From Thermodesulfobacteriota bacterium (lineage in GTDB: Bacteria > Desulfobacterota_D > UBA1144 > Nemesobacterales > UBA2774): a stretch of DNA of 64,000 bases. Location of the stretch: the NCBI GenBank assembly GCA_965216785.1, contig OZ244197.1, positions 576,001-640,000 of the forward strand, in the 5' to 3' direction. The notes under the pieces were generated by a model that was not told the origin of the DNA, did no database searches, and saw nothing but the letters and a program-made list of their open reading frames with translations. A program made the translations under genes and the position numbers. This document shows positions 19,168-42,641 of the stretch, piece by piece; the first letter of the stretch is position 1, and each line of letters begins with the position of its first letter.

Positions 19168-19809
19168 TTACGAAAGACCTATGGCTATGTGCACTACGTT
19201 TGCCAGAAAATGAAAGATGATACTGGCCCAGAGGGTGCCTGTGGCTAAGTATAGATAGCCCATAACCAAGGACGGGAAAAAAGTGAGAACGGCCTGAGAG
19301 CATACCGAAATATTATGACTTCCACCGATACAAAGAGTGATAAAATGCCCGATAGCAAAGAGAAGGCTCACGATAATAACTCCTTTCAAATTGTTCCCGA
19401 GCTTATTCTGAAGATAGCCCCTGAAAAAGACCTCTTCGGGCAGCGCTACCAAAAGGAGCTGTACGAGAATAAAGGTGTAGGAAAGCATGCGAAACGAAAG
19501 AGATCTATTTGTATAATAGCCTATGAGCGCCATGGCACCTGTGTATACGAGGAGCAGGATGACGGATACTATGAGCCCGATTACAATACCTCTTAAGTCC
19601 CACCTGAGTGTTGAAGAGCCACTTCCAGTGAAAATGGGTACGGAGAGCATTAAAAAGGCTGCTATTGAGGTAACATATGGCCAGGGGATAAAAAACTTCA
19701 TAGCGAGAATAGCTATGATGATTAGCACGTATATGGATAACGGGACAAGGTATCTGGACTCGCGTAAACTTGTTATCATAAGGAAATCTCGGAACACATT
19801 TTCAGGCAA
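19168..19809 (-). CDS. CPBP (Rce1/Abi) glutamic intramembrane protease, myxosortase/JDVT-sortase-like
   Basis: ALPEEVFFRGYLQ, LFAIGH, TFFPSLVMG, IFHFLAN; multiple TM helices; alternative start ATG 19779. Confidence 0.88.
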   Translation of the reverse strand: MPENVFRDFLMITSLRESRYLVPLSIYVLIIIAILAMKFFIPWPYVTSIAAFLMLSVPIFTGSGSSTLRWDLRGIVIGLIVSVILLLVYTGAMALIGYYTNRSLSFRMLSYTFILVQLLLVALPEEVFFRGYLQNKLGNNLKGVIIVSLLFAIGHFITLCIGGSHNISVCSQAVLTFFPSLVMGYLYLATGTLWASIIFHFLANVVHIAIGLS

Positions 19810-19839: not shown

Positions 19840-21072
19840 TCAATAAAGCACATAGAATTCAAACTTATTTATGAACAAAACACCCCAGATATTTACTAAG
19901 ATGCTGAGAACAATTAATAATTTGTGATACCACTTGAGCTTTTCGGGAATCCCCTTAAATGTAAGCAATAGAAGAAACGGATAGAAATCGAGAGCATAGC
20001 GGTAACCGAACTGGGTCCATCCCGTACCGCTCTTTGTAAAAATAAGTAGAGCCGGGGGAATGATGGCGAGCCAGCAAGCGAGAGCGAGTTTGTTTCTGAT
20101 TCCCGCGGCGAAAGCAAAGATGAACGCAGGGGTTGTGATAAGTACACTGAGCCCCTCTTTTGACGGAACGATGTAGGGCCATTTTTCAATAAGAGCCGGC
20201 GGCTGCAGGAGGAATGTATATAGGTGATGATGCACATAGGAGAGGCTGAGCAGCCCCTGATCGAACCACGGGGATACCCTGGCTTTAGCTTCTGATATTG
20301 TGTGCATGGAATACGCTACGTCAAAGGGCGAGCCGAAGCGCAGATAGTTGTAGAGAAAGTTTAGACTGATAAATACCCCGACCCCAAGGGCCAAAAGTAA
20401 TAGAGGCTTTAATTTAATCCGCTTTAATATAGAGCTGCCGGAGGACAAGGGAAGCCATAGATCTGAGAGCATTACTATAAAAAACGGGAGTGTTAAGATA
20501 GTTAGAACCCTGGACCAGTATGAAGCCCCTAAAAGAAGACCGATTAGAAACACTCTACGCTTGCCGAATGTCTCAAAGATAGCGAGAAATAGAAAAAAGA
20601 GCGAGACTATATGGGCAAAATACCAGACTGAGCCGATTGTCGACGTGTACCAGTATATGGTGCCAAACGCAAAGAGCAGAGTCATCCACACCTGCTTTTC
20701 AAAACTCTCCGTAAGCCTTCTCATTAGCAAGAAGACAATTGAAACGTTGACGGCGCCAAGAACGATAGATGCGAATACCTGGCTGAAAGAAAGTCCCCAT
20801 ACGGCTACGAAAGGCACCAAAAGCAGTGCCGGCATAGGAGGATATATGGTATAGGAAAGCCCGTCTTTTATAATGAGCTCCTCAAAATAAAACGGGGTGT
20901 CCTGAAGATAAAGTCTGCCGTCAAGCAGAGCGTGCGCAAGGTATATGAAATAGTTAAAGGGGTTGGGCGGAGAAGGCTGCGTTACAAAGTATAAAACAAA
21001 TGAAATCAGGAAAAATAGTACGGCTGCGATGAGCGTGGAGTTTCTTTTATAGCCTGGATTCGATATATTCAT
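19840..21072 (-). CDS. polytopic membrane protein, probable GT-C-fold glycosyltransferase; paralog of 24210-25424
   Basis: About 10 TM segments; YPPMPALLL after the first loop; C-terminal GWTQFGYRYALDFYPFL. ATG 21072 follows GAAGGT. Confidence 0.6.
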   Translation of the reverse strand: MNISNPGYKRNSTLIAAVLFFLISFVLYFVTQPSPPNPFNYFIYLAHALLDGRLYLQDTPFYFEELIIKDGLSYTIYPPMPALLLVPFVAVWGLSFSQVFASIVLGAVNVSIVFLLMRRLTESFEKQVWMTLLFAFGTIYWYTSTIGSVWYFAHIVSLFFLFLAIFETFGKRRVFLIGLLLGASYWSRVLTILTLPFFIVMLSDLWLPLSSGSSILKRIKLKPLLLLALGVGVFISLNFLYNYLRFGSPFDVAYSMHTISEAKARVSPWFDQGLLSLSYVHHHLYTFLLQPPALIEKWPYIVPSKEGLSVLITTPAFIFAFAAGIRNKLALACWLAIIPPALLIFTKSGTGWTQFGYRYALDFYPFLLLLTFKGIPEKLKWYHKLLIVLSILVNIWGVLFINKFEFYVLY

Positions 21073-21165
21073 TGTAACCTTCTTATAAGTAACATTATAT
21101 TCAAGCATTTGTCGGACGGTCAAGAAACTATGGAGACGCGACTCGATCGATAGTATATATCAGCA

Positions 21166-22260
21166 ATGAACCGCAAAGACACACTTAAAGAATTACTGCC
21201 CGTAATAATCATAACGATACTAGGTACGTATTTTTTTTCTTACGTCTCGTACATTTTGATACAGAACGCGTATCCCGAGAGCCTGTTCGAAATATGGACA
21301 AGATGGGATACCGGGCATTATTTGAAGATCGCGGAAAAGGGATACTTGGCATCAGCTGATTATCAGATCGCTTTTTTTCCCCTCTATCCCTACCTAATTA
21401 AAGCCCTTACCCTGGTGTTTCAAAACTATATGTTGTCAGCATTAGTTATATCAAATCTGACTTACGCAGTGGCCGCATATTTTCTGTATGAGCTTGTAAA
21501 ACTTGACTATGATAAAAAAGACGCCTTAAGGACTGTAATATATTTATCCGTTTTCCCGACGGCGTACTTCCTGCACGCGGCTTATACCGAAAGCCTGTTT
21601 CTGGCGCTTTCTATCGGGAGTTTTTACTACGCAAGAAAAAAAAGCTGGGCTCTGGCCGGTATTCTGGGAATGTTTGCGGCGGCGACGCGCATTACCGGCA
21701 TCCTTCTCCTTCCGGTGCTCATCGTGGAGTACCTATCGCAGAAAGAATATAAATTAAGCGGGATAAAAACAGACTTTGTATGGATATGGATAATCGGGCT
21801 TGGCCTGATCTCTTACCTTACATTCAATTACATGGTTACGGGCGATCCTTTCTACTTCTTTGAAGTACAGCAGGCGAGCTGGTCAAGGAAGATCGCGCTT
21901 CCGTATGAGGGATTTCTGAACGCGCTTAGCGGAAGGCCTCCCGGCCGCGAGTCTACGGGGGCGCTGGCGGGGGACTGGGCCGAGATTATATTCGGCGTTT
22001 TGGGATTGGCAGGCGTAATATATAGTTTTTTCAAGCTTCGTATTTCATATAGCCTATATGTTCTGCTTACCTGGTTACTCGTAACCTCTAGCGTGATCTG
22101 GCTCAGTATACCGAGGTTTACGCTTACGATGTTTCCGCTAATAATTCTCCTTGCTCTATTTGGCAGGCGCAGGGGAGCAAATTTTATAATTTTATTTCTT
22201 TCACTTATCTGCTATGCGCTATATTTGTCACAATTTATAAGGTTCAAATGGGCTTTTTAG
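21166..22260 (+). CDS. PIG-V/Gpi18-like (GT76, Mannosyl_trans2) mannosyltransferase, copy 1
   Basis: RWDTGHYLKIAEKGY, AFFPLYP, AYTESLFLAL, ATRITG. Confidence 0.85.
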   Translation: MNRKDTLKELLPVIIITILGTYFFSYVSYILIQNAYPESLFEIWTRWDTGHYLKIAEKGYLASADYQIAFFPLYPYLIKALTLVFQNYMLSALVISNLTYAVAAYFLYELVKLDYDKKDALRTVIYLSVFPTAYFLHAAYTESLFLALSIGSFYYARKKSWALAGILGMFAAATRITGILLLPVLIVEYLSQKEYKLSGIKTDFVWIWIIGLGLISYLTFNYMVTGDPFYFFEVQQASWSRKIALPYEGFLNALSGRPPGRESTGALAGDWAEIIFGVLGLAGVIYSFFKLRISYSLYVLLTWLLVTSSVIWLSIPRFTLTMFPLIILLALFGRRRGANFIILFLSLICYALYLSQFIRFKWAF

Positions 22261-22262
22261 CT

Positions 22263-23390
22263 ATGTCTAGAAAAAAATTTGAAGATATATTAGAAATTCT
22301 TCCAATAATACTGACGGTAATAATCGGCACATTCGTTTTCGGCATTGTGTCTCACCTGGTGATAGAGAATAGATTTCCGGAGAGCTTGCTTGATTTATGG
22401 AATACCTGGGACGTTCAGCACTATATAAAAATAGCCAAGTTCGGATACCCAGCATTATTCGAAGACGGAAGGAACCTGCAGATCGTATTTTTCCCTCTTT
22501 ACCCCCTACTTATAAAGTTATTTTCATTTGTTTTTCAGAATTACATAGTTTCTGCCCTTATTGTATCAAACCTGTCTTATGCTGCAGCGGCATATTACCT
22601 GTATAAGCTCGTAAAAATAGATTTTAAAAAGGATGGCGCTTATAGGGCCGTTATCTATTTCTCTGTATTCCCTACTGCTTATTTTCTGCATGCCGCGTAT
22701 ACGGAGAGCCTGTTTCTGGCTCTTACAATTTCGAGCTTTTATTACGCCAGAAACGGCAGGTGGGCCATTTCCGGTACGCTCGGTATGCTGGCGGCGGCTA
22801 CAAGAATTACGGGGATACTGCTCATTCCGGTGCTAGTAGTAGAATATTTATCACAGAAAGGTTATAAGATAAGAAATATAAGACCGGATATAGTCTGGAT
22901 CGGTATCATAGGGTTTGGATTACTCGCGTATTTAATTCTGAACTATGTAGTTGCCGGAGATCCGTTCTACTTCTTGGAAATACAAAGAGAGCATTGGGCT
23001 AAGAAACTTGATTTCCCATTTAAAGGGTTTATAAGCGCCTGGAATATTATGACCGGAGACTTTGCGCTTAACGTTGACAGCCCCTCGACTAGACTGCTTG
23101 GCGGTCCGGTTGAGATTATATTCTCGTTATTGGGGCTATCGCTAACTATTTATAGTTTTTTCAGGATTAGACTTTCTTACAGTTTATACGCGTTGGCTAC
23201 ATGGATAATCATCACATCTACAGGGTTCTGGCTGAGTATTCCCCGATATACGCTTGCCATGTTCCCGATCTTCATAGCTATGGCTCTTTTGGGAAGGAAA
23301 AAGTACGTCAATTATCTCATAATATTCATATCGATATTGTTCTATGCGCTCTTTTTAATGAATTTTGTGAGGTTCAGGTGGGCGTTTTGA
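22263..23390 (+). CDS. PIG-V/Gpi18-like mannosyltransferase, copy 2
   Basis: TWDVQHYIKIAKFGY, VFFPLYP, AYTESLFLAL; ATG 22263 lies directly after the copy 1 stop. Confidence 0.85.
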   Translation: MSRKKFEDILEILPIILTVIIGTFVFGIVSHLVIENRFPESLLDLWNTWDVQHYIKIAKFGYPALFEDGRNLQIVFFPLYPLLIKLFSFVFQNYIVSALIVSNLSYAAAAYYLYKLVKIDFKKDGAYRAVIYFSVFPTAYFLHAAYTESLFLALTISSFYYARNGRWAISGTLGMLAAATRITGILLIPVLVVEYLSQKGYKIRNIRPDIVWIGIIGFGLLAYLILNYVVAGDPFYFLEIQREHWAKKLDFPFKGFISAWNIMTGDFALNVDSPSTRLLGGPVEIIFSLLGLSLTIYSFFRIRLSYSLYALATWIIITSTGFWLSIPRYTLAMFPIFIAMALLGRKKYVNYLIIFISILFYALFLMNFVRFRWAF

Positions 23391-23479
23391 AAACTTCGTA
23401 GATGAAATGATCCCAAAAGTATTATTCCCCTCTAAAAGATAAAGTGTTAGTATACTTTGCTCACGGAGAAGGTAATTAG

Positions 23480-24181
23480 ATGGAAATTTCAATCGTAATT
23501 CCAACTTATAACGAATCAGAAAACCTACCGATCCTCATTGAGAAAATTACGGCGGCTCTGGATAGTAGCAATATTGAGAGCAGGATTATAGTAGTTGATG
23601 ACGATTCGCCTGACGGGACCTGGAAAACGGCACTTGAGTTAAAGAATACATATGAAAACCTTGAAGTTCTCAGGCGTCAGGACAAGAGGGGTCTTTCTTC
23701 CGCGGTGCTGGACGGGTTTGCTATGTCAGATAGCCCTATCTTGGGAGTGATGGACGCGGACTTGAGCCATCCGCCCGAGAAGATACCTGAGCTAGTGGAG
23801 CCTATAATCAGGGGAGACGCCGATATTACTATAGGCAGCAGATACATAGATGAGGGCGGAATTGAGAAATGGCCTTTGACCCGGAGGATTTATTCTAAGG
23901 TTGCCACTCTGCTCGTACTCGGGTTGACGAATGTAAAAGACCCGATGTCAGGTTTCTTCTTCCTTCACAGAAACGTTATAGAGAACAAGCAATTAAACCC
24001 GCTCGGGTTTAAAATAGGGCTTGAAGTACTGGTGCGGGGCGAGCATGAAAACGTAATTGAAGTACCGATATTGTTTGGGGACAGAATGCATGGCGAGAGT
24101 AAGCTCGGCGGGGGCGTCGTGCTTGATTATCTGCTGCATCTTTCTAATCTTTACATCTATAAGTATTTTATGAGAAAATAG
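23480..24181 (+). CDS. polyprenol-phosphate mannose synthase (DPM1/Ppm1-like GT2)
   Basis: IPTYNE, VDDDSPDGT, RGLSSAV, MDADLSHPP, GSRY, DPMSGFF, RMHGESKL. Confidence 0.9.
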   Translation: MEISIVIPTYNESENLPILIEKITAALDSSNIESRIIVVDDDSPDGTWKTALELKNTYENLEVLRRQDKRGLSSAVLDGFAMSDSPILGVMDADLSHPPEKIPELVEPIIRGDADITIGSRYIDEGGIEKWPLTRRIYSKVATLLVLGLTNVKDPMSGFFFLHRNVIENKQLNPLGFKIGLEVLVRGEHENVIEVPILFGDRMHGESKLGGGVVLDYLLHLSNLYIYKYFMRK

Positions 24182-24209
24182 AAGTTTATATGCTCATAGG
24201 GCTTAAAAT

Positions 24210-25424
24210 ATGAAGGAACTTTTCAAGACAGGATCAAATAACTCAACTTTATTTATAGCAATCGTATTAGCGGTCATATCGTTCGCTATATACTTTTTCA
24301 CAACTAACGGGGCACCCACACAATTTAATAACTTCGTTCTGCTGGCAGACGCTATATTGAACGGACAGCTGCACCTTGATAGAAATCTGAGCTGGATAGA
24401 GCTTGCTCATTATGATGGAATATACTTTATAGTTCCGCCCCCTATACCGACGATTTTGATATTGCCGGTAGTGGCTGTAACAGGTCTTGAAACAAATCAG
24501 ACTTTGCTTTCTTACGTCTTTGGAGCGATAAACGTATCACTGGCCTTTTTAACTGCCAGGTGTGTAAGTAGGAGCGTAAAAGTCCAGATCTGGACGGCAG
24601 TGATGTTCGGTTTCGGAACAATACACTGGTGGGTCGCCGCAAACGGCGGAGTCTGGATGTTTTCGCACACAATATCCGTCACATTTTTATTCATCGGAAT
24701 AATTCTGAGCTTTAAAAAGGCACACCCATTGCTGCCGGGCCTAAGCCTCGGCGCGGCATACTGGACCAGGCTCCCGACTGTACTTAGTTTCCCGTTTTTT
24801 ATGGCTATGTATGTGGATGAGTGGTATAAGAAGGACAGCACACAAAGCATAATAAGAAGGATCAATTTAAAGCCTCTTATTTATATGGGCTCGGGAGCAG
24901 GCATATTCGTAATACTGAACATGATTTATAATTACGTAAGGTTTGATACGCCTTTTGACGTGTCGTACTATCTTATTCCCGGAATCCTGGATGAATACTG
25001 GTATCAGAAAGGTATATTCGATATAAGCTACATACCGAGGCATCTGAAAATTATATTCGGCAGACTGCCAAATTTCTCAAGCGAATTCCCATATGTTACG
25101 GCATCTTGGAACGGGCTCGCAATCTGGATAACAACCCCCGCTTTTATATACGCATTCTTTGCGGGAATTAGAAACAGGATTGCTATTGGGTGCTGGCTTT
25201 CGATTGTGCTTATTGCATTTATAGATTTTTGTCATGGCACGTGGGGCTTTACACAGTTCGGTTACAGGTTCGCTATGGACTTCTATCCGTTCTTATTCCT
25301 CCTAACCGTCAAAGGGATTGGAGATAAGATCCGCTGGCACCATATAACTCTTATATTAATAGGGATACTGGTAAATCTTTGGGGGGTTCTCTGGATATAT
25401 AAATTCGGCTGGACCGGTTATTGA
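24210..25424 (+). CDS. polytopic membrane protein, probable GT-C-fold glycosyltransferase; paralog of 19840-21072
   Basis: VPPPIPTILI, YNYVRFDTPFDV, GFTQFGYRFAMDFYPFL. Confidence 0.6.
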   Translation: MKELFKTGSNNSTLFIAIVLAVISFAIYFFTTNGAPTQFNNFVLLADAILNGQLHLDRNLSWIELAHYDGIYFIVPPPIPTILILPVVAVTGLETNQTLLSYVFGAINVSLAFLTARCVSRSVKVQIWTAVMFGFGTIHWWVAANGGVWMFSHTISVTFLFIGIILSFKKAHPLLPGLSLGAAYWTRLPTVLSFPFFMAMYVDEWYKKDSTQSIIRRINLKPLIYMGSGAGIFVILNMIYNYVRFDTPFDVSYYLIPGILDEYWYQKGIFDISYIPRHLKIIFGRLPNFSSEFPYVTASWNGLAIWITTPAFIYAFFAGIRNRIAIGCWLSIVLIAFIDFCHGTWGFTQFGYRFAMDFYPFLFLLTVKGIGDKIRWHHITLILIGILVNLWGVLWIYKFGWTGY

Positions 25425-25442
25425 TAGGCAGAAGAGATAAGA

Positions 25443-26060
25443 CTATTTCTTAAAAACGAGAAACTTATATCCCAAAAAATTCCAAATAACTACTATAAAT
25501 ACAGACGCAAGAGCCGAAATATTGGCCCATAGCACCGGAGACACGCCGCCAATGGGGCCGACGAAATTAACCAGGAATGAAGCCACAGCAACGTTAATAA
25601 AAAACCCGACGCCGGCAACTGTGAGAAACTTAAAAAACTGCTTCCCCATACCTTTAGTCTCAATACTCTCAAAGGTCCAGAACTTGTTCCACAAATAACT
25701 GTTAGTTACGGCTGAGAGAAAGGAGACAGCCTTAAAAATCGAAAATAGGTAACCTTTTTCGACACCGGACAAGAAGATAAGAAGGTTAAGTATCCCGAAG
25801 TCAATTGAAACATTGGACATGCCAATGGGAATGAATTTGCCGAATTGAAAGAGTGAGTGCCGATAGGAGCCGAGACGCGAAAAAATATATACCCATAAAG
25901 AGACCAAGGGGGGAATAACTATCAGAGCAAATGGCCAGTACTCAAGATACGAATGATAACCCTGGGGAATCTCGGCTTTTAGAGCATTCAGCATCGCCAC
26001 GGTAAAAACCGATATTATGAGTCCGATAATAAGCGAGGATATTAGATCTGTTCTTTTCAT
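25443..26060 (-). CDS. GtrA-family lipid-linked sugar flippase with two extra N-terminal helices
   Basis: [44 protein letters not shown]. Confidence 0.88.
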
Positions 26061-26148
26061 AATCCGAGATGTATAAATTCAAACCGGCCGGAGTATATAG
26101 CTATATAATCTTAAGGAATGATAGCATGTACTTTTATTTCAAACGACA

Positions 26149-27462
26149 TTATCTCCAGGATTCAAGCCACATATATTGTTCGTGTTTATGATTTTCCATA
26201 TTTACTGCCGCAGTAATCGGATAGAAATAGATGAACACCGCCACAGCCGCAAGCAGGTACAGGACCACAAGTATTTTCCCGAACTTAGAATTCATGTTCC
26301 AAATGCGGTCGAGAAAATAGGCGCTTATTATGAGAATGAAGATAAAAGCGGGTATATAATGGTATAAAAAAGTTATCTTTCTCGGAGAAACCGCCCACGG
26401 AAGCCAAAGCGCAAGCACGCTTACGACGGCGAATATGAGAGGCGGATACTCTTTTCTTATGGCCTGAACCGCGCCCAGAACAAAGAACACACACCCCGTC
26501 CACCATATAAATGGGTTACCGAGCATATAAATATGCGCTCTGATACCTTCCCCTAAATCGTCAAAGTGAAGATATACGGGCTCGAGCATAAGAGGCCACT
26601 GCCACCACCTGGATTCATATGGGTGATGAGTTTCCACCCCGCCGTGAAAACCGTACATGGCATCCTGAAGACTAAGGAAGTCGACAAATGAATTACCAAA
26701 ATAGAAAAAAGGAATGTAAGTGGCAATGTAGACAAGTAAAGGCAGCACTCCGAACGCAATAGCCATTCTCGGAATTATATTTAGAACCGACTTTATATAG
26801 GAGCGGTCTTTTGAATCAGACAGACTGACTTCATAGTAATAGATTAGAAAAAAAGAGACCCCCGCAAGGAATATCCATATGTATACACCGCTCCATTTAA
26901 TGGACATCGAGGCCCCCGCAAACAACCCTGCCAGCATAAGAAACAAGATCTTTCTAGTTCTCGCGTACTTTACTACAAATAGAGACGCCAGGAGCAAAAA
27001 ATCGACCATAAAAATATCGACCATAGTAATCCGGCTGAGCACAAATATAAATGAATCGAGACTGTAGAGTACCGCAGCAATTAACCCTACTCCTTTACTT
27101 AGAAATAGGTTCTTCGCTAAAAGGTATATTAGAAGCGCGCCCAAGCCGCCGAAGAATGCCTGAAAAAACCGCCAGCCAAATGTATTATTGCCGAATATCT
27201 TGATGCCGATTGCGCTCAGCTCCTTACCCAGAGGAGGGTGTGACCATTCATATGCGAGATCCTCGGGAGCGTGACCGGTATTCTGCCAGGCGTGCTTGTT
27301 TCCCTTAGCCATCTCTTGGGCAGTGAAAGCATAATATACTTCGTCGAAATAGTAGCTTTGGGGTATTTCCAAACGGTATAATTTAGTGCCTAAGCTGAAA
27401 ATAAGCACTAAAAACAAGAGTATCTCGAATCTGAATTTATAGAGTAGCGAGTTTGAAGACAT
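26149..27462 (-). CDS. protein O-mannosyltransferase (PMT, GT39)
   Basis: YFDEVYY (DE motif), HPPLGK, FGWRF, KWSG, HPYESRWWQWP, FLYHYIPA. Confidence 0.9.
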   Translation of the reverse strand: MSSNSLLYKFRFEILLFLVLIFSLGTKLYRLEIPQSYYFDEVYYAFTAQEMAKGNKHAWQNTGHAPEDLAYEWSHPPLGKELSAIGIKIFGNNTFGWRFFQAFFGGLGALLIYLLAKNLFLSKGVGLIAAVLYSLDSFIFVLSRITMVDIFMVDFLLLASLFVVKYARTRKILFLMLAGLFAGASMSIKWSGVYIWIFLAGVSFFLIYYYEVSLSDSKDRSYIKSVLNIIPRMAIAFGVLPLLVYIATYIPFFYFGNSFVDFLSLQDAMYGFHGGVETHHPYESRWWQWPLMLEPVYLHFDDLGEGIRAHIYMLGNPFIWWTGCVFFVLGAVQAIRKEYPPLIFAVVSVLALWLPWAVSPRKITFLYHYIPAFIFILIISAYFLDRIWNMNSKFGKILVVLYLLAAVAVFIYFYPITAAVNMENHKHEQYMWLESWR

Positions 27463-27464
27463 TT

Positions 27465-28829
27465 CTAATTCCCTGAACCGATATGTGCAATGTGCTCTTT
27501 AGTAGATTCCAGATGCTCTTTTGAAGCTCCTTTATACCTGAGCGTATTTTTTATAAAATCATAGAACAAATACAGGAAAACAAAAAGGTATAGAAAAAAC
27601 AGCCCGGGTATAAATAATCCGGAATATTCTTCAGGAATTCCCTTGTATAGTGTGACTAATTGTATATAGGAATAGATCATATTCAAAACGTAAACAAGGG
27701 AGACGATAGCATATAAATACCATAATATCCAATGGCGATAAGTGAGCAGAGTGAAAAACACGATTGCGGGGAGGAGGTGTCTTTCGTGGGCGCGCGTGAT
27801 AAATAAAAAGAGAGAGAATATAATAAGAGTAATCGCCTGGTATATAAAATAAGAGAAATCCTTGCCATACTCTCCGCGGCTTACGTAGACTACACGGATA
27901 AGGAGAGCGCCGATCACAGTGTATATGGAGAAAAATATCACCGTACCCCAGCTCTTGTATGATAAACCCAGAAATAATAGACCGTCGTTCCTCCACATAG
28001 CAAAAGATCCCCAGAAATTAAAAGCGTTGAGAGAGGAATATGGGTACTGATCATAGGCTGCAAAGAATCTGGCTCTGATAAGTTCTAGAGGTCCGGTGAA
28101 TATATAGGTGAAAGTATCGAGCTTATCCCATATGAAGGGTAGCGATAAAATTGTAGAAGTTATTAGTATCGCCAGCACTACTTTAAGTGTCGGTATAAAT
28201 GTTTTAATTGTTGGCTTTCTGTATTGCCTGAATAAGGGCTCAACTGCTATAAGTCCTATTAACGGGAACACCACAATGCTCGGGGGCTTAATCATAAACG
28301 CCAGGGCCGCGAATATGCCTGAGAGTACATATCGCCTGCCTAAAGCTGTTATTATGGAAAGAAGTATGGGCAGGGCGTGAAAAGAATCTACTTGCCCCCA
28401 AAATGTTGAGTTTGAAAGAGAAGCGGGATTGAAAAGATAAACGACAGAGGCAATCATAGCGTTTCTGACTGTAGTAATGCGCCTCAGTGCGTAGAATATT
28501 GAAACGGATATGCCGAGATCAGCAAGATTGGCCGGTAATTTAAACAGTATATCTGTTGAAAACGCGGGGAAAGCGGAACTTATCCTGTCGAGCGCCCACA
28601 GTACGTAGAGATAACCTGGCATATAGTCACACCAGAATCTGTCGTAAAACTTGCTGAAGCCGACCCACGAAATCTGACTACCCCATATTTTCCAGGCCAT
28701 AAAGTCATTTTCGTAGGTAAGGAATAGAGAAAATATAATTCTCAGTAAAAACCCCGCCGCGAGTATCAGAACAAAAAGAACATAGGGATCTTTGAGGTTT
28801 GTGTACCTACCTACTTTAGCGGAGCTCAT
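27465..28829 (-). CDS. GT-C glycosyltransferase (ALG6/GT87/DUF2029-like)
   Basis: DYMPGYLYVLW, KLPANLADL, NSTFWGQVDS, SLNAFNFW, HERHLLPA; about 11 TM segments. Confidence 0.75.
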   Translation of the reverse strand: MSSAKVGRYTNLKDPYVLFVLILAAGFLLRIIFSLFLTYENDFMAWKIWGSQISWVGFSKFYDRFWCDYMPGYLYVLWALDRISSAFPAFSTDILFKLPANLADLGISVSIFYALRRITTVRNAMIASVVYLFNPASLSNSTFWGQVDSFHALPILLSIITALGRRYVLSGIFAALAFMIKPPSIVVFPLIGLIAVEPLFRQYRKPTIKTFIPTLKVVLAILITSTILSLPFIWDKLDTFTYIFTGPLELIRARFFAAYDQYPYSSLNAFNFWGSFAMWRNDGLLFLGLSYKSWGTVIFFSIYTVIGALLIRVVYVSRGEYGKDFSYFIYQAITLIIFSLFLFITRAHERHLLPAIVFFTLLTYRHWILWYLYAIVSLVYVLNMIYSYIQLVTLYKGIPEEYSGLFIPGLFFLYLFVFLYLFYDFIKNTLRYKGASKEHLESTKEHIAHIGSGN

Positions 28830-29523
28830 CTCTAAGTTTCCAGGATTCTTTGAACATTCTTAGTATTACTTTAATATTAGCACCTGATTGCGTGCCGAAT
28901 TTCCGGGGAAAGTGGCGTATGGGAAATTCCTTTAGCTTATACCCGTGGTTTTTTAATTTGATCAGAAACTCGGCTGTAAAAAGCGCCCCACCTGAGATAA
29001 TGGGTCTAACACAGTGATAAGCCTTAGTGGGAATGACCTTAAAAGCGCAGTCCATATCCTTAACTTTTAGTCCGAACATAAAATATATGTACATCGCGTA
29101 AAGCCAAGCGTTAAGTGATCGCACGGGTGAGTCCGCTCTATCTTCTCTATAGCCGATAAGCACATCGTTTTCATTAACCGAGGGCAGCATACGATCAAGA
29201 TCGCTTATGTCGAATTGCCCGTCGCTGTCCATGAAGAAAATGTAATCGAGAGAAGCTTTTTCAAAACCACTCAGGAGCGCACCTCCATAGCCTCTATTTA
29301 CTTCGTGGTTAACCAATATGACAGATGGATTTGTGGATGCGAGCTGATCCACAATGGCCCCGGTATTATCGCTTGAGCCGTCGTTTACGACTATTACCTC
29401 GTAAGTACCGACATTATTCTCAAGATACGAAACACACTGGTTTACAGTGGTTTCAATATTTTCTTCTTCATTATGCGCAGGAAGAACTGCTGAAAGAGAT
29501 ATATCTGCTCTCATTTTATCCAT
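28816..29523 (-). CDS. GT2 polyprenol-phosphate glycosyltransferase (DPM/DPG synthase-like)
   Basis: LPAHNEE, VNDGSSD, NRGYGGAL, MDSDGQFD, DMDCAFK. Confidence 0.88.
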   Translation of the reverse strand: MDKMRADISLSAVLPAHNEEENIETTVNQCVSYLENNVGTYEVIVVNDGSSDNTGAIVDQLASTNPSVILVNHEVNRGYGGALLSGFEKASLDYIFFMDSDGQFDISDLDRMLPSVNENDVLIGYREDRADSPVRSLNAWLYAMYIYFMFGLKVKDMDCAFKVIPTKAYHCVRPIISGGALFTAEFLIKLKNHGYKLKEFPIRHFPRKFGTQSGANIKVILRMFKESWKLRDELR

Positions 29524-35604: not shown

Positions 35605-37560
35605 TTATTTCTTTCTTCTTCTCATAGCTCTGATACCGAATACGAACGCTACAGGTACCAGCGGAATCAGTACGTTGGCGAATGCCGTGCCAAGCTGTAC
35701 AGGGTTTCCGGCGATTGCGCAGCTACCACTTCCGCCACCACGGTTAGGCGTGGTCGTCGGAGGAGCCGTCGTCGGTCCGAGTGTCGGAGCCGTCGTCGGA
35801 GGAGCCGTCGTCGGAGGTCCTACGAAGTTGTCGCTAAGAATAAGCGCTTCGTCGATTCCGAGTCTTGCGAAACAAACTGGAAGCTCGCCGCAACTCGTGA
35901 ACTTCTCTACGTCGTTCCAGATACCGACTACCGCGTTGATGAAAGCTGCCTGCGGTGTATATGAAGGCAGATATTCATCATAGAAGTTGATGTGAACTGC
36001 ATCAGCTCCAGCAGTACCTGTCTGGGCATCGAACTGTCCTGCGAATACGTTCGGAACGATTACGTCTAGGAACGCATTCTCGGATCCGTCAAGGATACCG
36101 TCACACTCGAGTGTTTCAATAATAGTGTCGAGTACTGTGAAGTTATCTACAAAAGCTCCAGTGTTGTCGCCACCATCTGTACAACCCGCCTCAGAAGTCT
36201 GTCCGGTGATGTACTGAACAGCATAAGTACCAGGTCCGTCTATGGAAAGTGACTCGCCAGTGAAGAACGCAGAGCGGCCAGCTATAAAGTCGAAGTTACT
36301 ACCAGCACCTGATACGTTGTACTGCTGTGCATCAGTACCCAAACCTGTACATGTATTACCATTAGCAGGGTCATCGCCGAGCGCTGCCGCGTTATAACAC
36401 CTGCAGTCCTCGAAGTTAGCAACACCAGTGGTGTCATCAATTATACAGACCATCGCATAGTTAGCACAGGTCGTAAAACTATCCGGAAGCAGGAACGATA
36501 GGTCATAGGTAAGAGTTTTACTCTCATCAGTCGTGAAAATGTTACTGGTTACAACAGTCACGTTCGTCTCAAAAGCAGCACCCGAATCAATAAGGTTCGG
36601 TCGTGCGAGCTCAGTAAACGGCCCACCCTGGTATGGTAGAGACGGATTGAAAGTTGATGAGACTGCAAAACCCATGAACAAGTTAGAGTTGGGGTTATCA
36701 GCGTCAGGGCCAGAAGCAGCAGGTATCGGTACAGTTCCCACAGCTATATTAGCCTCGGTGATTCCACTCGATTGACCCTGGCCAACTGACCATGGTCCGA
36801 TGGTCGGTCCATTCTGGAAACTTCCATTCTGGACAAGGTTAACTGTTGTCGTTGTTGTTATATCAAAGCAAACACCCTCTCTGTGATAGGTAGCAAAACC
36901 ATACATGTAATCTGATTCTGCAACACTTTTAATGAAAGTGTTACCAGCTAGATAGTCATGCTCTTGCGCTTGACCAGGAGTCGGGCAGTTGTCAACAGCC
37001 GTTACAGTTACAAAACCCTCTTTACCCTGAAGGTTAGCATCGGCTTCGTCAACACCTATGTTTGAAATGATATCTCCAAAGTTATATACGTGAGTATCGA
37101 ACTCAGTGTAGAAATCACAGAAGTTTCTGATTTCAACACAGTTTTCGTCAAATATATGCACGTGAACCCAGGTACCAGTTTCGTTTATAGCGTTGGTTAC
37201 CTGAAGGTACGTGTTTCTGCCATCTTTCTGTGTCCACCAAGAAACAATCTGTGAACCAGTTTCGTTAGTCGGTGTAGGACTGAAGAAAGAGGTAAAATCT
37301 ACATGCTGCCAGTCCATACCACCGTGTAGCGGCCCTCCGATAAGGCTATCGACGGTACCGATGAGCGCACCCGAGAAGTCCGGGAACGGCAAAGCCGGAG
37401 CAGCCTCTACATTTACTTCTAGCCAACCTGTAGTGTCTGGTACAGCCGGGCAGAACAGGCCGTCAGTGCCAACTTGGGCCTGAGCCTGGTTCTGAAAACC
37501 AAACCCTAGCAAGACAAGCATTATTACAGCTACCAAAGAAAATCTTAACTTGCTTATCAT
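35605..37560 (-). CDS. acidic secreted surface protein (S-layer candidate) with Pro/Thr linker and Cys-containing C-terminal sorting signal
   Basis: Signal peptide ending AQA; D/E/T/G/N-rich; ends PPTTAPPTTAPTLGPTTAPPTTTPNRGGGSGSC, hydrophobic helix, RAMRRRKK; strong RBS AAGGAGG. Confidence 0.85.
   Translation of the reverse strand: MISKLRFSLVAVIMLVLLGFGFQNQAQAQVGTDGLFCPAVPDTTGWLEVNVEAAPALPFPDFSGALIGTVDSLIGGPLHGGMDWQHVDFTSFFSPTPTNETGSQIVSWWTQKDGRNTYLQVTNAINETGTWVHVHIFDENCVEIRNFCDFYTEFDTHVYNFGDIISNIGVDEADANLQGKEGFVTVTAVDNCPTPGQAQEHDYLAGNTFIKSVAESDYMYGFATYHREGVCFDITTTTTVNLVQNGSFQNGPTIGPWSVGQGQSSGITEANIAVGTVPIPAASGPDADNPNSNLFMGFAVSSTFNPSLPYQGGPFTELARPNLIDSGAAFETNVTVVTSNIFTTDESKTLTYDLSFLLPDSFTTCANYAMVCIIDDTTGVANFEDCRCYNAAALGDDPANGNTCTGLGTDAQQYNVSGAGSNFDFIAGRSAFFTGESLSIDGPGTYAVQYITGQTSEAGCTDGGDNTGAFVDNFTVLDTIIETLECDGILDGSENAFLDVIVPNVFAGQFDAQTGTAGADAVHINFYDEYLPSYTPQAAFINAVVGIWNDVEKFTSCGELPVCFARLGIDEALILSDNFVGPPTTAPPTTAPTLGPTTAPPTTTPNRGGGSGSCAIAGNPVQLGTAFANVLIPLVPVAFVFGIRAMRRRKK
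35744..35822 (-). repeat. imperfect 15-nt tandem repeat (CCTCCGACGACGGCT) encoding PPTTA units
   Basis: Forward strand gtcgtcggaggagcc units with one PTLG interruption. Confidence 0.85.
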
Positions 37561-37631: not shown

Positions 37632-38753
37632 TTAAAGATCCTCTGTCGGCTCTAACGTAGGAGGAAAATCTTCCTCGTCATCCGAAGCAAGCCAAGAATC
37701 CATGGATCCCGTACCGTTTCCGTTGTTAAGGCCTAAGAAACCAACGAAAAATAGATCTTCATCTGGGGAATCCTCAAAGAAGACCGGCAGGTACAACCAA
37801 CCAGCGTCATTGGATTCGCTGAGCGTGCTGTCGTTGCATATACGGTTACCCAAGTCAGCCTGCTTACTGTTAGGAATAGAGTTATCTATACCTCTGTTGA
37901 AGTTGCCAATCGAGCAGTCAAAGAATGTCGGGCTGCAAGACGTACCGTCTTCAAATTCATCGAATATATGAACCTGCGGGTTGCTAACTTCAAACGGGTC
38001 ACCAGAATTGGAGCCGAATGTAATTCCAAAGAATGGTGATGCGGTAACAGTATCGAAGTCAACCTCTTCATAGACTATACCAACAACATCTGAGAGGTTA
38101 TTGCCGTCTACGTTATTGAAGTTCAATATGAAATCTGTCGTTTCATCCCCAAAGAAGTCTTCTCCCGCTGCATTAGTTCTGTATTCATAACCAGAAGCGT
38201 CTAATATGCGGAATAAGCCAATCATCGCGAAGTCGTCACCCGAGATAAGCGAAATCGAAACGAAACCGTAACTGTTGGACAGATCCGGGTCCGGAGCCGA
38301 TTCACACTCGGAATTTGGTAATCCGTCGGCTGTACAGTTGCTTACCAAGTTCTCAATATCGTAAACGTGTGTATCGCCCTTAGTGTAAACATCGTCCCAG
38401 TTTACCTCTTCGCATGCACCAAAAGGCTGGTCAACAGTAGTTGCACCAACATTAAAAATCTGTACGTGAACAACTATTGTGCTCGTCGATGTATTGGTCA
38501 GCTGAAATAGGGTGTCCCTATCTCTTGTATCCCAATAGTAGATGAGTCTGTTCACTCCAGTATCTGTCTGGTCAACCAGCGGCAATACGTTACCGCCGGG
38601 GCCGCCAGCGATTGACTGCGTCGGTAGAACCAGCATTGGTAAAACCAAAAGAAAAGCAAGTACTAACAAGTACTTTATTTTGGACATAATATCCTGTAGC
38701 ATTGAACCTTTCCTCCTTGTTATAGTATTGTTGATTATGTTTCCTTTGTTCAT
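37632..38753 (-). CDS. acidic secreted protein, paralog of 35605-37560 without the anchor
   Basis: Signal peptide; shared motifs (QLTN, VHVQIF, DTHVYD, GFV, TSC, GID). Two in-frame AAGGAGG-preceded starts at 38753 and 38702. Confidence 0.85.
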   Translation of the reverse strand: MNKGNIINNTITRRKGSMLQDIMSKIKYLLVLAFLLVLPMLVLPTQSIAGGPGGNVLPLVDQTDTGVNRLIYYWDTRDRDTLFQLTNTSTSTIVVHVQIFNVGATTVDQPFGACEEVNWDDVYTKGDTHVYDIENLVSNCTADGLPNSECESAPDPDLSNSYGFVSISLISGDDFAMIGLFRILDASGYEYRTNAAGEDFFGDETTDFILNFNNVDGNNLSDVVGIVYEEVDFDTVTASPFFGITFGSNSGDPFEVSNPQVHIFDEFEDGTSCSPTFFDCSIGNFNRGIDNSIPNSKQADLGNRICNDSTLSESNDAGWLYLPVFFEDSPDEDLFFVGFLGLNNGNGTGSMDSWLASDDEEDFPPTLEPTEDL

Positions 38754-38890
38754 ATACATCCTCCTTTTATTTTTCAAATTTCAGTAAATATCCAGGATTT
38801 GCAAGCGTTAGGCAAGCTCCATCTCCTTTAATTTAACATAAGAACATACGCAAAAACGCAAACTTATAAACAAATTCACAACTGCACAGA

Positions 38891-39689: not shown

Positions 39690-42641
39690 ATGTTGAAGAG
39701 ATTTACAAACACATCCAAAAAACTATCACTTATACTCATAGCCGCCGCACTCACATACATTCTACTCGTATCGCCCTGGCCTGGAAGTCTGAAGAGTCCG
39801 GGCGGGGCCCAATCCCAAGCCCAAACAAACAATCTGAATATAACGCACGTCGTAATGCAGTACGTAAAGCGCTATTACGTCAACCAGGGGAATATAGAAC
39901 CGAAAGCTATGCTGATCGAGGGTCTCGGAACGCTTGAGAGAATACACGACCAGATACTCGTGGACTTTCCAAACGGGGAGGAGAGCGCGAGCTTTGAAGT
40001 CCAGGCAGTGGACGAGAAAGCGAGCTTTGATATGAGCCAGGTGGATGATCTGGATGACGTTACTAAAACGCTCGAGCAGGTCTTCGGATTTATAACTCCC
40101 CGCATATCGGACAAGGAACCAGAAATACAGGACGTGGAATACGCGGTACTTGACCAGATGCTTAAATCCCTGGATCAACACTCGGGAATAATTACCCCTG
40201 AGGTATATAAGGAGTTCATGATTGAAACAGAGGGGAGCTTCGGGGGACTCGGAATAGTGATCGGGATCAGGGACGGTGAGTTGACAGTAATTTCCCCGAT
40301 AGAAGGGACACCGGCTTACAGAGTGGGAATTAAGCCGAATGACAAGATCGTTCAGATAGAGCACGAATCTACAGTGAACATGTCGCTAATTGAGGCAGTG
40401 AGCAAGCTCAGAGGCCGTAAGGGTACAGACGTTACTATATATATAGATAGAGAGACCTTTCCCAAGCCTAAGGAATTTAGCATCACAAGGGACACGATCA
40501 AAATCGAGAGCGTAGAGACTTTCGATCTTGATGACGGGATAAGGTATGTGAGGATTAGGGATTTTCAAAAAAACACACTTGACAGCATTATTGAGAATTT
40601 GAATGACTCTCCTAACAGCCCGAGCGGTATGATCGTTGACCTAAGGGGCAACCCCGGAGGGCTGCTGGACCAGGCAGAGAGGATTTCGGACCTCTTTCTG
40701 ACAAGCGGAGTGATAGTTACTACAAAGGTGGGTAATTCCGCAAAACGCTACCATGCAAACGACAAGGACCACCAGTACGAGGGTAAGGTCGTTGTGCTGG
40801 TGGATTCGGGCTCGGCCAGCGCGTCTGAAATTTTGGCGGGAGCGCTTAAGAATAATGAGCGCGCCGTGGTGATAGGGGAGAGGACTTTCGGAAAGGGCTC
40901 TGTTCAGCAAATATTCGACATGACCGACGGCTCTGCCCTTAAACTCACAATAGCGCAGTACCTGACCCCGGGAGACATATCCATACAGGATGTGGGCGTG
41001 ACCCCGGATATCGTACTCCATCCCGCAATTATTACCGAGGACACGGTTGTATTCGATACTACCGCACCTAAACTTAGAAACAATAATGAGAAGAAGTCTA
41101 AAAAGAGCGAGCAGGAGCTTGAGAAACCGATTTATTCCATAAGGTACCTGGAAAGTAATTTTGTAGAGAACGATGACGAGGAACCTACACCTGAGGAAGC
41201 TTTAACCCGCGAGGAAAGGCTCGAGAAACTAAAGAATGATTTTTACGTATCTCTTGCAAAAGACATTCTACTTTCCTCAACCTCTCCTACCAGAGAGGAC
41301 TCCCTGGGCAAAATACAAGACAACATAGGCAAGATAACAAAGGACCAGGAAGATAAGATAGTAGATAAATGGCAGCTCATGGGAGTTGACTGGTCTACAT
41401 CTAAAACGAATGCCGGGAACTCGTCTGTATCAGTAAATGTTTTGCCGCCCCTCCCCACCGGAAAAGCAGGTGAGGAGCTTGAAGTAAAAGTAGAAGTGGA
41501 AAATACGGGTACCGAGCCGATCTACAGACTGCACGCAACGACTGATTCTGAGAACGTTATATTCGCGGGAAAAGAATTTATATTCGGCAAGCTCGCTCCG
41601 GGAGAAAAGAAATCCTGGACTACCACGGTAGAGCTGCCTAAATGGTCTCTCACCCGCCAAGACGGGATTACACTTGAGTTTATAGACGCAAACGACTCCA
41701 AGATAGGGGACTATGCTTTTAACGCTTCGATACAAGCGCTGCCGAGACCGCTTTACGCCTTTAATTATGAAATTGTGGATGACGGCAGATTAAGCTCGAG
41801 CGGCAACTCAAACGGGATAGCTGAGACCGGTGAGATGGTTACGCTGCTGCTTAGAGTTAAAAACATAGGTGACGGAACTTCAGAAAAAACGGTTTTATCA
41901 TTAAAAAACGAATCCGGTGAAAACATATTTCTCGATAAGGGCCGGGTCGAGCTCGAAATGCTTGAGCCCGGGGAGACAAGGGAAGCCGTATTTTCCTTCC
42001 ATTTGCTTAAGCCCTCTAATCTGATTGAGATGGAGCTGCAGATTGTGGACGAGATATTCAGGGAAGGAATTATGAGTAATGTTTTGATACCGGGAAAAAT
42101 AAAGGATACAGCGTTTACGCCGGAAGAATCTTTTGTAGCGGTGCCGCAGGCGAGCACGCCTATTAGAGGGGGGAGCTATCAGCAAGCCCCTATCATAGCG
42201 ATCTCTCAGAAGGACGCGGTCTTTAAAGCAATCGGAACGAACGGTAATTGGGTAAAAATAGAGCTCGATGATAGTCTTACCGGCTGGATAAATAAAAATA
42301 AGGTGCAGCCCGCTCAGAGTTCTAACGGCAAAATAGATGCAAAGGCATTATATATAGAAACTTTTGAGACCCCGCCGATAATCAGCATCAGCAGCCCTCC
42401 TCTTTTTACGAGTACGGGGACTGTGACCCTAAGCGGGGATGTAAACGATAACGACGGGATAGAGCTCATATCGGTCTTCGTCGGAGACGACAAGGTAGCG
42501 CTGCTGCCGTCCTCTCAAACCAAGGTGCCGGTATCGCTGGAGCTTGAGCTGGACGAGGAAGTAAACCTGATCACGATTATTGCTAAAGATACCAAGGGGC
42601 TCCTCTCAAAACAGAGTTTTGTTGTCAGAAAAGAGGGCTGA
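39690..42641 (+). CDS. large S41 carboxyl-terminal processing protease (PDZ + S41 + Ig/CARDB-like + SH3-like domains; MXAN_5808-like architecture)
   Basis: FGGLGIVI, DLRGNPGGLL, SASASEI, TFGKGSVQ; N-terminal TM/signal; long beta-rich C-terminal extension. Confidence 0.9.
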   Translation: MLKRFTNTSKKLSLILIAAALTYILLVSPWPGSLKSPGGAQSQAQTNNLNITHVVMQYVKRYYVNQGNIEPKAMLIEGLGTLERIHDQILVDFPNGEESASFEVQAVDEKASFDMSQVDDLDDVTKTLEQVFGFITPRISDKEPEIQDVEYAVLDQMLKSLDQHSGIITPEVYKEFMIETEGSFGGLGIVIGIRDGELTVISPIEGTPAYRVGIKPNDKIVQIEHESTVNMSLIEAVSKLRGRKGTDVTIYIDRETFPKPKEFSITRDTIKIESVETFDLDDGIRYVRIRDFQKNTLDSIIENLNDSPNSPSGMIVDLRGNPGGLLDQAERISDLFLTSGVIVTTKVGNSAKRYHANDKDHQYEGKVVVLVDSGSASASEILAGALKNNERAVVIGERTFGKGSVQQIFDMTDGSALKLTIAQYLTPGDISIQDVGVTPDIVLHPAIITEDTVVFDTTAPKLRNNNEKKSKKSEQELEKPIYSIRYLESNFVENDDEEPTPEEALTREERLEKLKNDFYVSLAKDILLSSTSPTREDSLGKIQDNIGKITKDQEDKIVDKWQLMGVDWSTSKTNAGNSSVSVNVLPPLPTGKAGEELEVKVEVENTGTEPIYRLHATTDSENVIFAGKEFIFGKLAPGEKKSWTTTVELPKWSLTRQDGITLEFIDANDSKIGDYAFNASIQALPRPLYAFNYEIVDDGRLSSSGNSNGIAETGEMVTLLLRVKNIGDGTSEKTVLSLKNESGENIFLDKGRVELEMLEPGETREAVFSFHLLKPSNLIEMELQIVDEIFREGIMSNVLIPGKIKDTAFTPEESFVAVPQASTPIRGGSYQQAPIIAISQKDAVFKAIGTNGNWVKIELDDSLTGWINKNKVQPAQSSNGKIDAKALYIETFETPPIISISSPPLFTSTGTVTLSGDVNDNDGIELISVFVGDDKVALLPSSQTKVPVSLELELDEEVNLITIIAKDTKGLLSKQSFVVRKEG

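Follow-up and report, generated by a model that had tools for sequence, protein, structure and literature searches.

The window, that is, the whole stretch of 64,000 nucleotides that was analysed, belongs to a 3.1-Mb genome of Candidatus Dadabacteria (G000 in our numbering) and contains the following features around the gene of a 651-aa predicted secreted protein, the presumed client of a sorting system:

35605..37560, minus strand: 651-aa predicted secreted client protein, predicted to be all-beta, with an N-terminal hydrophobic region
35605..35742, minus strand: putative Cys-type C-terminal sorting tail, residues 607-651 plus stop
35605-35607, minus strand: stop codon of the 651-aa reading frame
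35608..35631, minus strand: basic terminus RAMRRRKK, as read from the sequence
35632..35685, minus strand: predicted transmembrane helix, about A626 to I643, with P633 and P636 inside (hydropathy 2.25 over 17 residues)
35719..35721, minus strand: codon of Cys614, the signature residue and putative lipidation site
35722-35739, minus strand: GGGSGS run directly before Cys614
35743..35820, minus strand: Thr/Pro-rich linker, residues 581-606, seen in the sequence, with a pLDDT below 50 at the C-terminal end of the model
37632..38777, minus strand: upstream gene of a tail-less secreted homologue that shares part of the client's N-terminal domain (E 1.3e-4 at G000:C1:614322-614564)
19168..19809, minus strand: myxosortase-like CPBP intramembrane protease, the candidate cutter (likely start 19779, 203 aa)
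19840..29523: cluster between protease and client with two GT2, GtrA, PMT, two PIG-V-like and three unassigned membrane proteins

The C-terminal end of the 651-aa protein reads RGGGSGS-C614-AIAGNPVQLGTAFANVLIPLVPVAFVFGI-RAMRRRKK. The preliminary description of this DNA had recognised a tripartite tail consisting of a Gly/Ser run ending in Cys, a hydrophobic helix and a basic end, and all three parts have been found in the sequence as described. The placing of the Cys at residue 614, the 38th residue counted from the C-terminus, agrees with its codon, and the conservation proposed for it holds in 11/11 tails of the genome and in 74/74 homologues that reach the tail. Among 77 homologues of the 651-aa protein, the Cys lies 36-39 residues from the C-terminus in 74, and the remaining three are short (377-466 aa) and end ahead of the tail. 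The double-Pro pattern ANVLIPLVP, which had been regarded as a hallmark of the signal, has turned out instead to be a trait of the query's orthologues (8/75 aligned tails). A search of NCBIfam and Pfam at E≤10 has given no match for the 651-aa protein or for its last 51 or 60 residues.

Single-sequence folding of the client has resulted in a pLDDT of 33, and a model of the mature protein based on a 72-sequence alignment is all-beta with a pLDDT of 88.4. The predicted middle domain resembles a carbohydrate-binding-module-like jelly roll (8xmz_B, Z 12.8, rmsd 2.7, 133 aligned, in a search of mainly residues 209-449), a modelled likeness that shows fold and no function, and a search of the ESM Atlas has given no usable match. 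That the client is an S-layer protein would be a guess. Named homologues of the client come from Candidatus Dadabacteria or from MAGs labelled Thermodesulfobacteriota or Deltaproteobacteria, and contigs of related 651-aa-gene copies occur in seawater RNA libraries; these runs were found with that gene, so they give no ranking of expression. In the genome G079, at least ten full-length paralogs of the 651-aa protein with near-identical tails form tandem groups (e.g., C1:553615-562218 and 712266-722303), which suggests surface variation. The Thr/Pro linker ahead of the tail is predicted to be disordered and is a possible O-glycosylation site, which the GT2/GtrA/PMT/PIG-V-like cluster could glycosylate. 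The client lies 16 kb from the protease in this window and is thus not adjacent to it, and many genomes of the families f1 and f2 have the two about 15 kb apart with the same cluster between them. At the protease loci of family f8, protease and tails have been retained and the GT2/GtrA/PMT cluster is absent, and therefore the cluster is not required for sorting. Also encoded in the window is an S41 peptidase (39690-42641), which scores above the cut-off of the MXAN_5808 family (827 vs 661 bits) and is divergent from the client operon.

A C-terminal pattern scan of G000 has produced 22 candidates, of which 11 have been retained as the query tail type; those discarded were mostly tails of the IPTL type or short frames judged spurious. 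The 11 tagged proteins are 348-1882 aa long, carry the Cys 34-45 residues from the end and possess, as judged by hydropathy, an N-terminal hydrophobic region in 11/11 cases. They include a subtilase, a thaumatin-domain protein, NHL propellers, a G8/CEMIP protein, and DUF11 and PMP-repeat proteins, and fall into seven groups between which no homology of the bodies has been found; three body homologues in the same genome lack the tail. When each tail was left out in turn and searched for among 8,676 ORFs, all 11 ranked first among the non-seed ORFs, a result beyond what chance would give. The expected occurrence of the tail on several unrelated, predicted secreted proteins has been borne out. 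The query tail is the weakest of them, scoring 14.5 bits (E 0.011; runner-up 11.4) with the profile of the other ten, which reach 19.0-42.8 bits in their own rounds. Position, several occurrences per genome, and the combination of motif, helix and basic cluster are attributes that the G000 tail shares with tripartite sorting signals as characterised by Haft, and the same applies to the N-terminal hydrophobic regions, the clients' unrelated bodies and the existence of tail-less homologues. A second tail type, for which we take IPTL to be the family name, ends about 58 proteins of G000, and an exosortase-family gene, found mostly in family f1, is located at C1:983629-984054; the two point to a known sorting system of another kind.

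Throughout the class, 120 genomes have been sampled, comprising 92 tail-positive and 28 tail-negative ones. The tail-positive number was lowered from 95 by removing three apparent matches (G018, G107, G108) in which the Cys part of the profile is missing, and it includes several f8 genomes counted on weak, individually uninspected matches (best E 0.01-0.035). The closed 2.0-Mb genome G019 has 57 tail matches, mostly in frames of 700-2100 aa, and with up to that number in one genome the tag offers a means of listing probable surface proteins. Its core is G-C-[AS]-[ILV]-A, followed by the helix and Arg/Lys. In 75 class tails, G has been found at -1 in 58, C in 75, A or S at +1 in 73 and A at +3 in 60, counts that are partly circular since the profile used to find the tails embodies this very pattern. 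Pro occurs at +13 to +25 relative to the Cys in 58/75, a second Cys within four residues of the first in 0/75, and a DP motif likewise in 0/75.

The candidate protease carries the motifs EExxxR, FxxxH and HxxxN, which are invariant in 12/12 aligned orthologues, as are the catalytic residues E115, E116, R120, H145, H190 and N194. A Cys pair in a loop (C150 and C160; gene 19171-19779) is equally invariant in all 12 and possibly forms a disulfide. Of the three PF02517 proteins in G000, the window CPBP reaches 72.9 bits with Mrt_core (NF040914, cut-off 100 bits), the others 15.4 and no hit; one of them (C1:282579-283214) scores 87.9 bits with the archaeal MrtA model, whose cut-off is 200. The window CPBP stays below all Mrt cut-offs (MrtP 76.8/250, MrtC 59.7/195, MrtX 42.5/180, MrtJ 37.6/75, MrtS 55.8/130), and Mrt_core at 100 bits is reached by the protease in 0/120 class genomes. 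The generic CPBP of G119 has a Pfam score of 78.8, higher than that of the window CPBP, yet only 31.9 bits with Mrt_core, and has not been counted as an orthologue. When 1.84 billion representatives were searched with a profile, the best 150 hits were followed up, and 89 of them, selected from below the top ranks for their greater length, were scanned; 50 of these 89 pass Mrt_core, ten MrtP and two MrtC, which makes the myxosortases MrtP and MrtC the nearest named relatives among the scanned hits. In a 38-row CPBP tree, the Dadabacteria and Nitrospirota enzymes fall outside a 15-row MrtP/MrtC clade (98/97), with an unreliable root as the outgroups sit on very long branches; a trimming error at an upstream motif affects two MrtP rows of this tree, and the intended outgroup L105 is absent from it. 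The named genomes closest by this CPBP are Dadabacteria, and the nearest homologues outside the phylum are from Nitrospirota, in which the protease frame lies at most 160 nt from a tail-bearing frame in 10/13 loci and is once flanked by two. At two Nitrospirota loci (L231 and L235), protease and tail-bearing gene directly follow an apparent T2SS operon, and at other loci the cassette follows pilMNOPQ-like genes, as judged by eye.

A strong protease orthologue (54-73 bits) has been found in 85/120 class genomes. Tail and protease occur together in 84, the protease without the tail in one (G070), the tail without the protease in eight, and neither in 27, so that the proposed co-occurrence of the tail with the CPBP gene is seen in 84/92 tail-positive vs 1/28 tail-negative genomes. 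These genomes include kin that are not independent, and two or three events underlie the counts. Seven of the eight tail-positive genomes lacking the protease are fragmented (110-350 contigs, 59-92% complete); in the eighth, G047, both protease and gspD are missing, which suggests an assembly gap. The TrkA tree places the tail-less G020 within family f4 (95/93), groups f6 with f4 and f8 (99/99) and leaves f9 as the outgroup, and therefore indicates two separate joint losses of tail and protease, in G020 and in f6. With 0.8-1.6 Mb, the tail-negative genomes of f6 and f9 are small, and the joint absence may therefore partly reflect general gene loss. G000 encodes a full-length GspD (491.7 bits, cut-off 351), which is present in nearly all tail-positive genomes, absent from f6 and f9, and retained in G020. 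Direct observations are the tag, its spread, the catalytic motifs of the protease, and the finding that tag and protease occur together and, in Nitrospirota, side by side.

Regarding the catalogued Cys-type tags, there is a resemblance in layout to MYXO-CTERM with MrtX, MrtC and MrtP: a Cys motif with helix and Arg cluster is placed about 35-40 aa ahead of the C-terminus, many clients occur per genome, the CPBP is single-copy and apart from its clients, a T2SS is present, and the protease motifs ALPEExFxRGY and FFPxLxxG are myxosortase-like. Sharing of the Cys is partly circular in this comparison, the tails having been chosen by a Cys pattern. MYXO-CTERM has been described as having a helix free of Pro and charged residues and, in many cases, two Cys (10.1101/2023.06.07.544157), whereas the Dadabacteria tag has a single Cys (no second one in 75/75), the G-C-[AS]-[ILV]-A core and usually Pro in the helix. 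The tail mostly and the protease wholly score below the model cut-offs, the protease is short (203 aa) with its invariant Cys pair unlike the myxosortases, and the hosts are the phylum Dadabacteria plus, in cassette form, Nitrospirota. JDVT-CTERM (NF033191) and MrtJ (NF033192) share the single Cys after a Gly run and, in the Nitrospirota relatives, the adjacency of protease and client. JDVT-CTERM, however, carries a DP motif nine residues downstream of its Cys (10.1101/2023.06.07.544157), which is missing here, has one tagged protein per genome vs up to 57 matches, and its models leave both tag and protease under their cut-offs. Likewise, Synerg-CTERM (TIGR04564) and MrtS (NF040589) correspond in the Ser/Gly run ending in one Cys, the Pro inside a Leu-rich helix and the T2SS association, but the Synerg-CTERM Cys is without a following spacer (10.1101/2023.06.07.544157), whereas several residues lie between Cys and helix in our tails, scores are again under the cut-offs, and the host is not from Synergistota. 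The shared tag design, the myxosortase-like CPBP and the adjacency in Nitrospirota therefore identify the Dadabacteria tail and protease as a genuine variant of the Cys-CTERM/myxosortase mechanism that has yet to be catalogued, and not as a new kind. In the largely open-access literature covered, nothing on a CTERM system in Dadabacteria has been found; a mention elsewhere is possible.

The tail is a portable Cys-type C-terminal tag, and we consider it quite probable that it is processed like MYXO-CTERM by the CPBP at 19168-19809. Cleavage, Cys dependence, surface localisation and a T2SS model have been reported for MrtX (Guo, Haft and Wall, PMC11980579), and it is from Myxococcus that we infer cleavage, lipidation and T2SS transport for Dadabacteria. 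The tagged client would first be exported by Sec and then be held in the inner membrane by the helix with its basic end inside. Next, the tag Cys would be lipidated, most likely by a transferase of the Lgt family, for which the conserved second copy described below would be the leading candidate in Dadabacteria; the CPBP would cut just after the Cys, and the T2SS would carry the lipid-anchored protein to the surface. Such a sequence would resemble the Lgt/LspA lipoprotein pathway in that the Cys would presumably be lipidated before a cut is made within the membrane, and differ from it in the inverted topology, the lack of a lipobox and a cut distal to the Cys, the dedicated Lgt paralog being a proposal. 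As the mechanism class is already known, the value of the system lies in the cognate protease and a testable Lgt candidate; a sorting mechanism proven in one myxobacterium would be extended to Dadabacteria and, as a cassette, to Nitrospirota.

Could the tail be nothing other than MYXO-CTERM, with a protease that is an ordinary myxosortase underrated by the present models? Among the 11 tails of the genome, one does pass TIGR03901 (20.3 bits, cut-off 20) and another reaches 15.9, Haft calls lineage-specific models necessary for counting MYXO-CTERM proteins (10.1101/2023.06.07.544157), and MrtP and MrtC are the nearest named relatives of the protease among the 89 scanned hits. The query tail itself has no hit with this model, in line with the preliminary remark that it matches none of the MYXO-, JDVT- and Synergist-CTERM tags. 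At E≤1, 18 of the 75 class tails match MYXO-CTERM, 21 JDVT-CTERM and 10 Synerg-CTERM, the best E-values for the latter two being 0.0011 and 0.0085 (cut-offs 27 bits for NF033191 and 22.5 bits for TIGR04564), but only 2/75 come near the MYXO-CTERM cut-off (E≤0.0007). Together with the helix Pro, the missing second Cys and a protease below the Mrt_core cut-off in every genome, this renders the assignment to MYXO-CTERM proper unlikely; it differs from the explanation by an uncatalogued variant in naming, not in mechanism. Accordingly, the lineage-specific sorting signal that had been postulated survives as a portable, lineage-restricted Cys tail, and not as a separate class defined by a double-Pro helix.

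A plain C-terminal membrane anchor, with the helix uncut and the Cys at most acylated or disulfide-bonded in place, would fit the strong conservation of the whole tail within the 651-aa family, which is possible for a structural anchor, and cleavage in Dadabacteria is indeed a step reached by inference. The recurrence of one core on seven unrelated protein groups, and the way the tail tracks one CPBP subfamily and adjoins it in Nitrospirota, nevertheless make a mere anchor very unlikely. Processing by another enzyme has also been considered, namely a rhombosortase, as for GlyGly-CTERM, in view of the Gly run, an exosortase, or the second CPBP at G000:C1:282579. Many tails have GG ahead of the Cys, and G000 has an exosortase-family match as well as two further CPBPs. 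However, exosortase is rare or absent where tails abound, with 0/37 f8, 0/5 f4 and 1/15 f2 genomes having it and 37, 3 and 15 of these having tails; rhombosortase TIGR03902 exceeds its cut-off in 0/5 tail-bearing genomes tested, with no match in G019 and G066; and the protease is the sole PF02517 match in 35/36 genomes of genus g26 and in G019, which leaves no second CPBP there. A different processing enzyme is thus very unlikely, and the window CPBP is retained as the presumed cutter.

For the lipidation step assumed in CPBP processing, PMC11980579 states that the tag-Cys acyl-transferase is yet to be identified, Lgt being favoured there since MrtX was functional in E. coli. In Dadabacteria, a second copy of this enzyme, besides lgt1 (G000:C1:3072420-3073235), comes into question:

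G000:C1:1249474-1250244: lgt2, conserved second Lgt, the paralog of the recJ-lgt2-trkA locus

At least two PF01790 (Lgt) matches have been found in 89/92 tail-positive vs 2/28 tail-negative genomes, counts that may include fragments or a metal-island copy, as not all matches were inspected. A single Lgt is present in f6 (6/6), f9 (19/19) and G020. An lgt pseudogene suspected in G020 (18.4 bits, two stops) has been rejected since tblastn found nothing at the site, and G020 is therefore counted as having one Lgt. In a 49-row Lgt tree, the second copies form one clade over six families (17 rows, 99/92); they adjoin trkA, usually after recJ. Where tail and protease are lost, lgt2 is cleanly missing from this locus, and recJ and trkA are retained without an lgt between them in G020, G026, G028 and G111. 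A non-housekeeping paralog whose presence goes along with that of tag and protease could be cloned as a specific candidate for the lipidation enzyme, and the lipidation step is therefore testable in E. coli.

Several observations speak against this candidate or limit it. The closed genome G063 has lost lgt2 and retained the protease and one true tail, and of 13 Nitrospirota genomes, eight show just one Lgt match and another shows no match at all; the host Lgt alone may be sufficient for the tag, as in E. coli. Tail-less Dadabacteria lineages have been described as streamlined (10.1101/2020.06.22.165886). In a control for background gene loss, which covered 1.78 of the 1.99 Mb of G020 and a reference set biased to protease neighbourhoods, 36/90 reference genes are missing; the missing genes include housekeeping ones, probably located in the remaining sequence. 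The catalytic residue of E. coli Lgt is His103 (PMC8689077), an equivalent of which is absent from both Dadabacteria paralogs (Tyr in lgt1, variable in lgt2), and therefore the activity of lgt2 is not assured; the equivalents of Arg143 and Arg239 appear to be retained. A complete mirror image of the lipoprotein pathway, in which Lgt2 would lipidate the tag Cys, the CPBP would remove the helix and the T2SS would display the product, is accordingly offered as a tentative proposal that we hold to be somewhat less than an even chance; if true, the acyl-transferase still sought in the myxosortase papers would be Lgt2. In both paralogs, the HGG motif known from E. coli is without its His, and a GRIGCxLVGDDYG motif is common to them. 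A third lgt (G000:C1:1211639-1212412) lies in an apparent metal-efflux island, its neighbours having been judged by eye, and branches at the base of the lgt2 clade.
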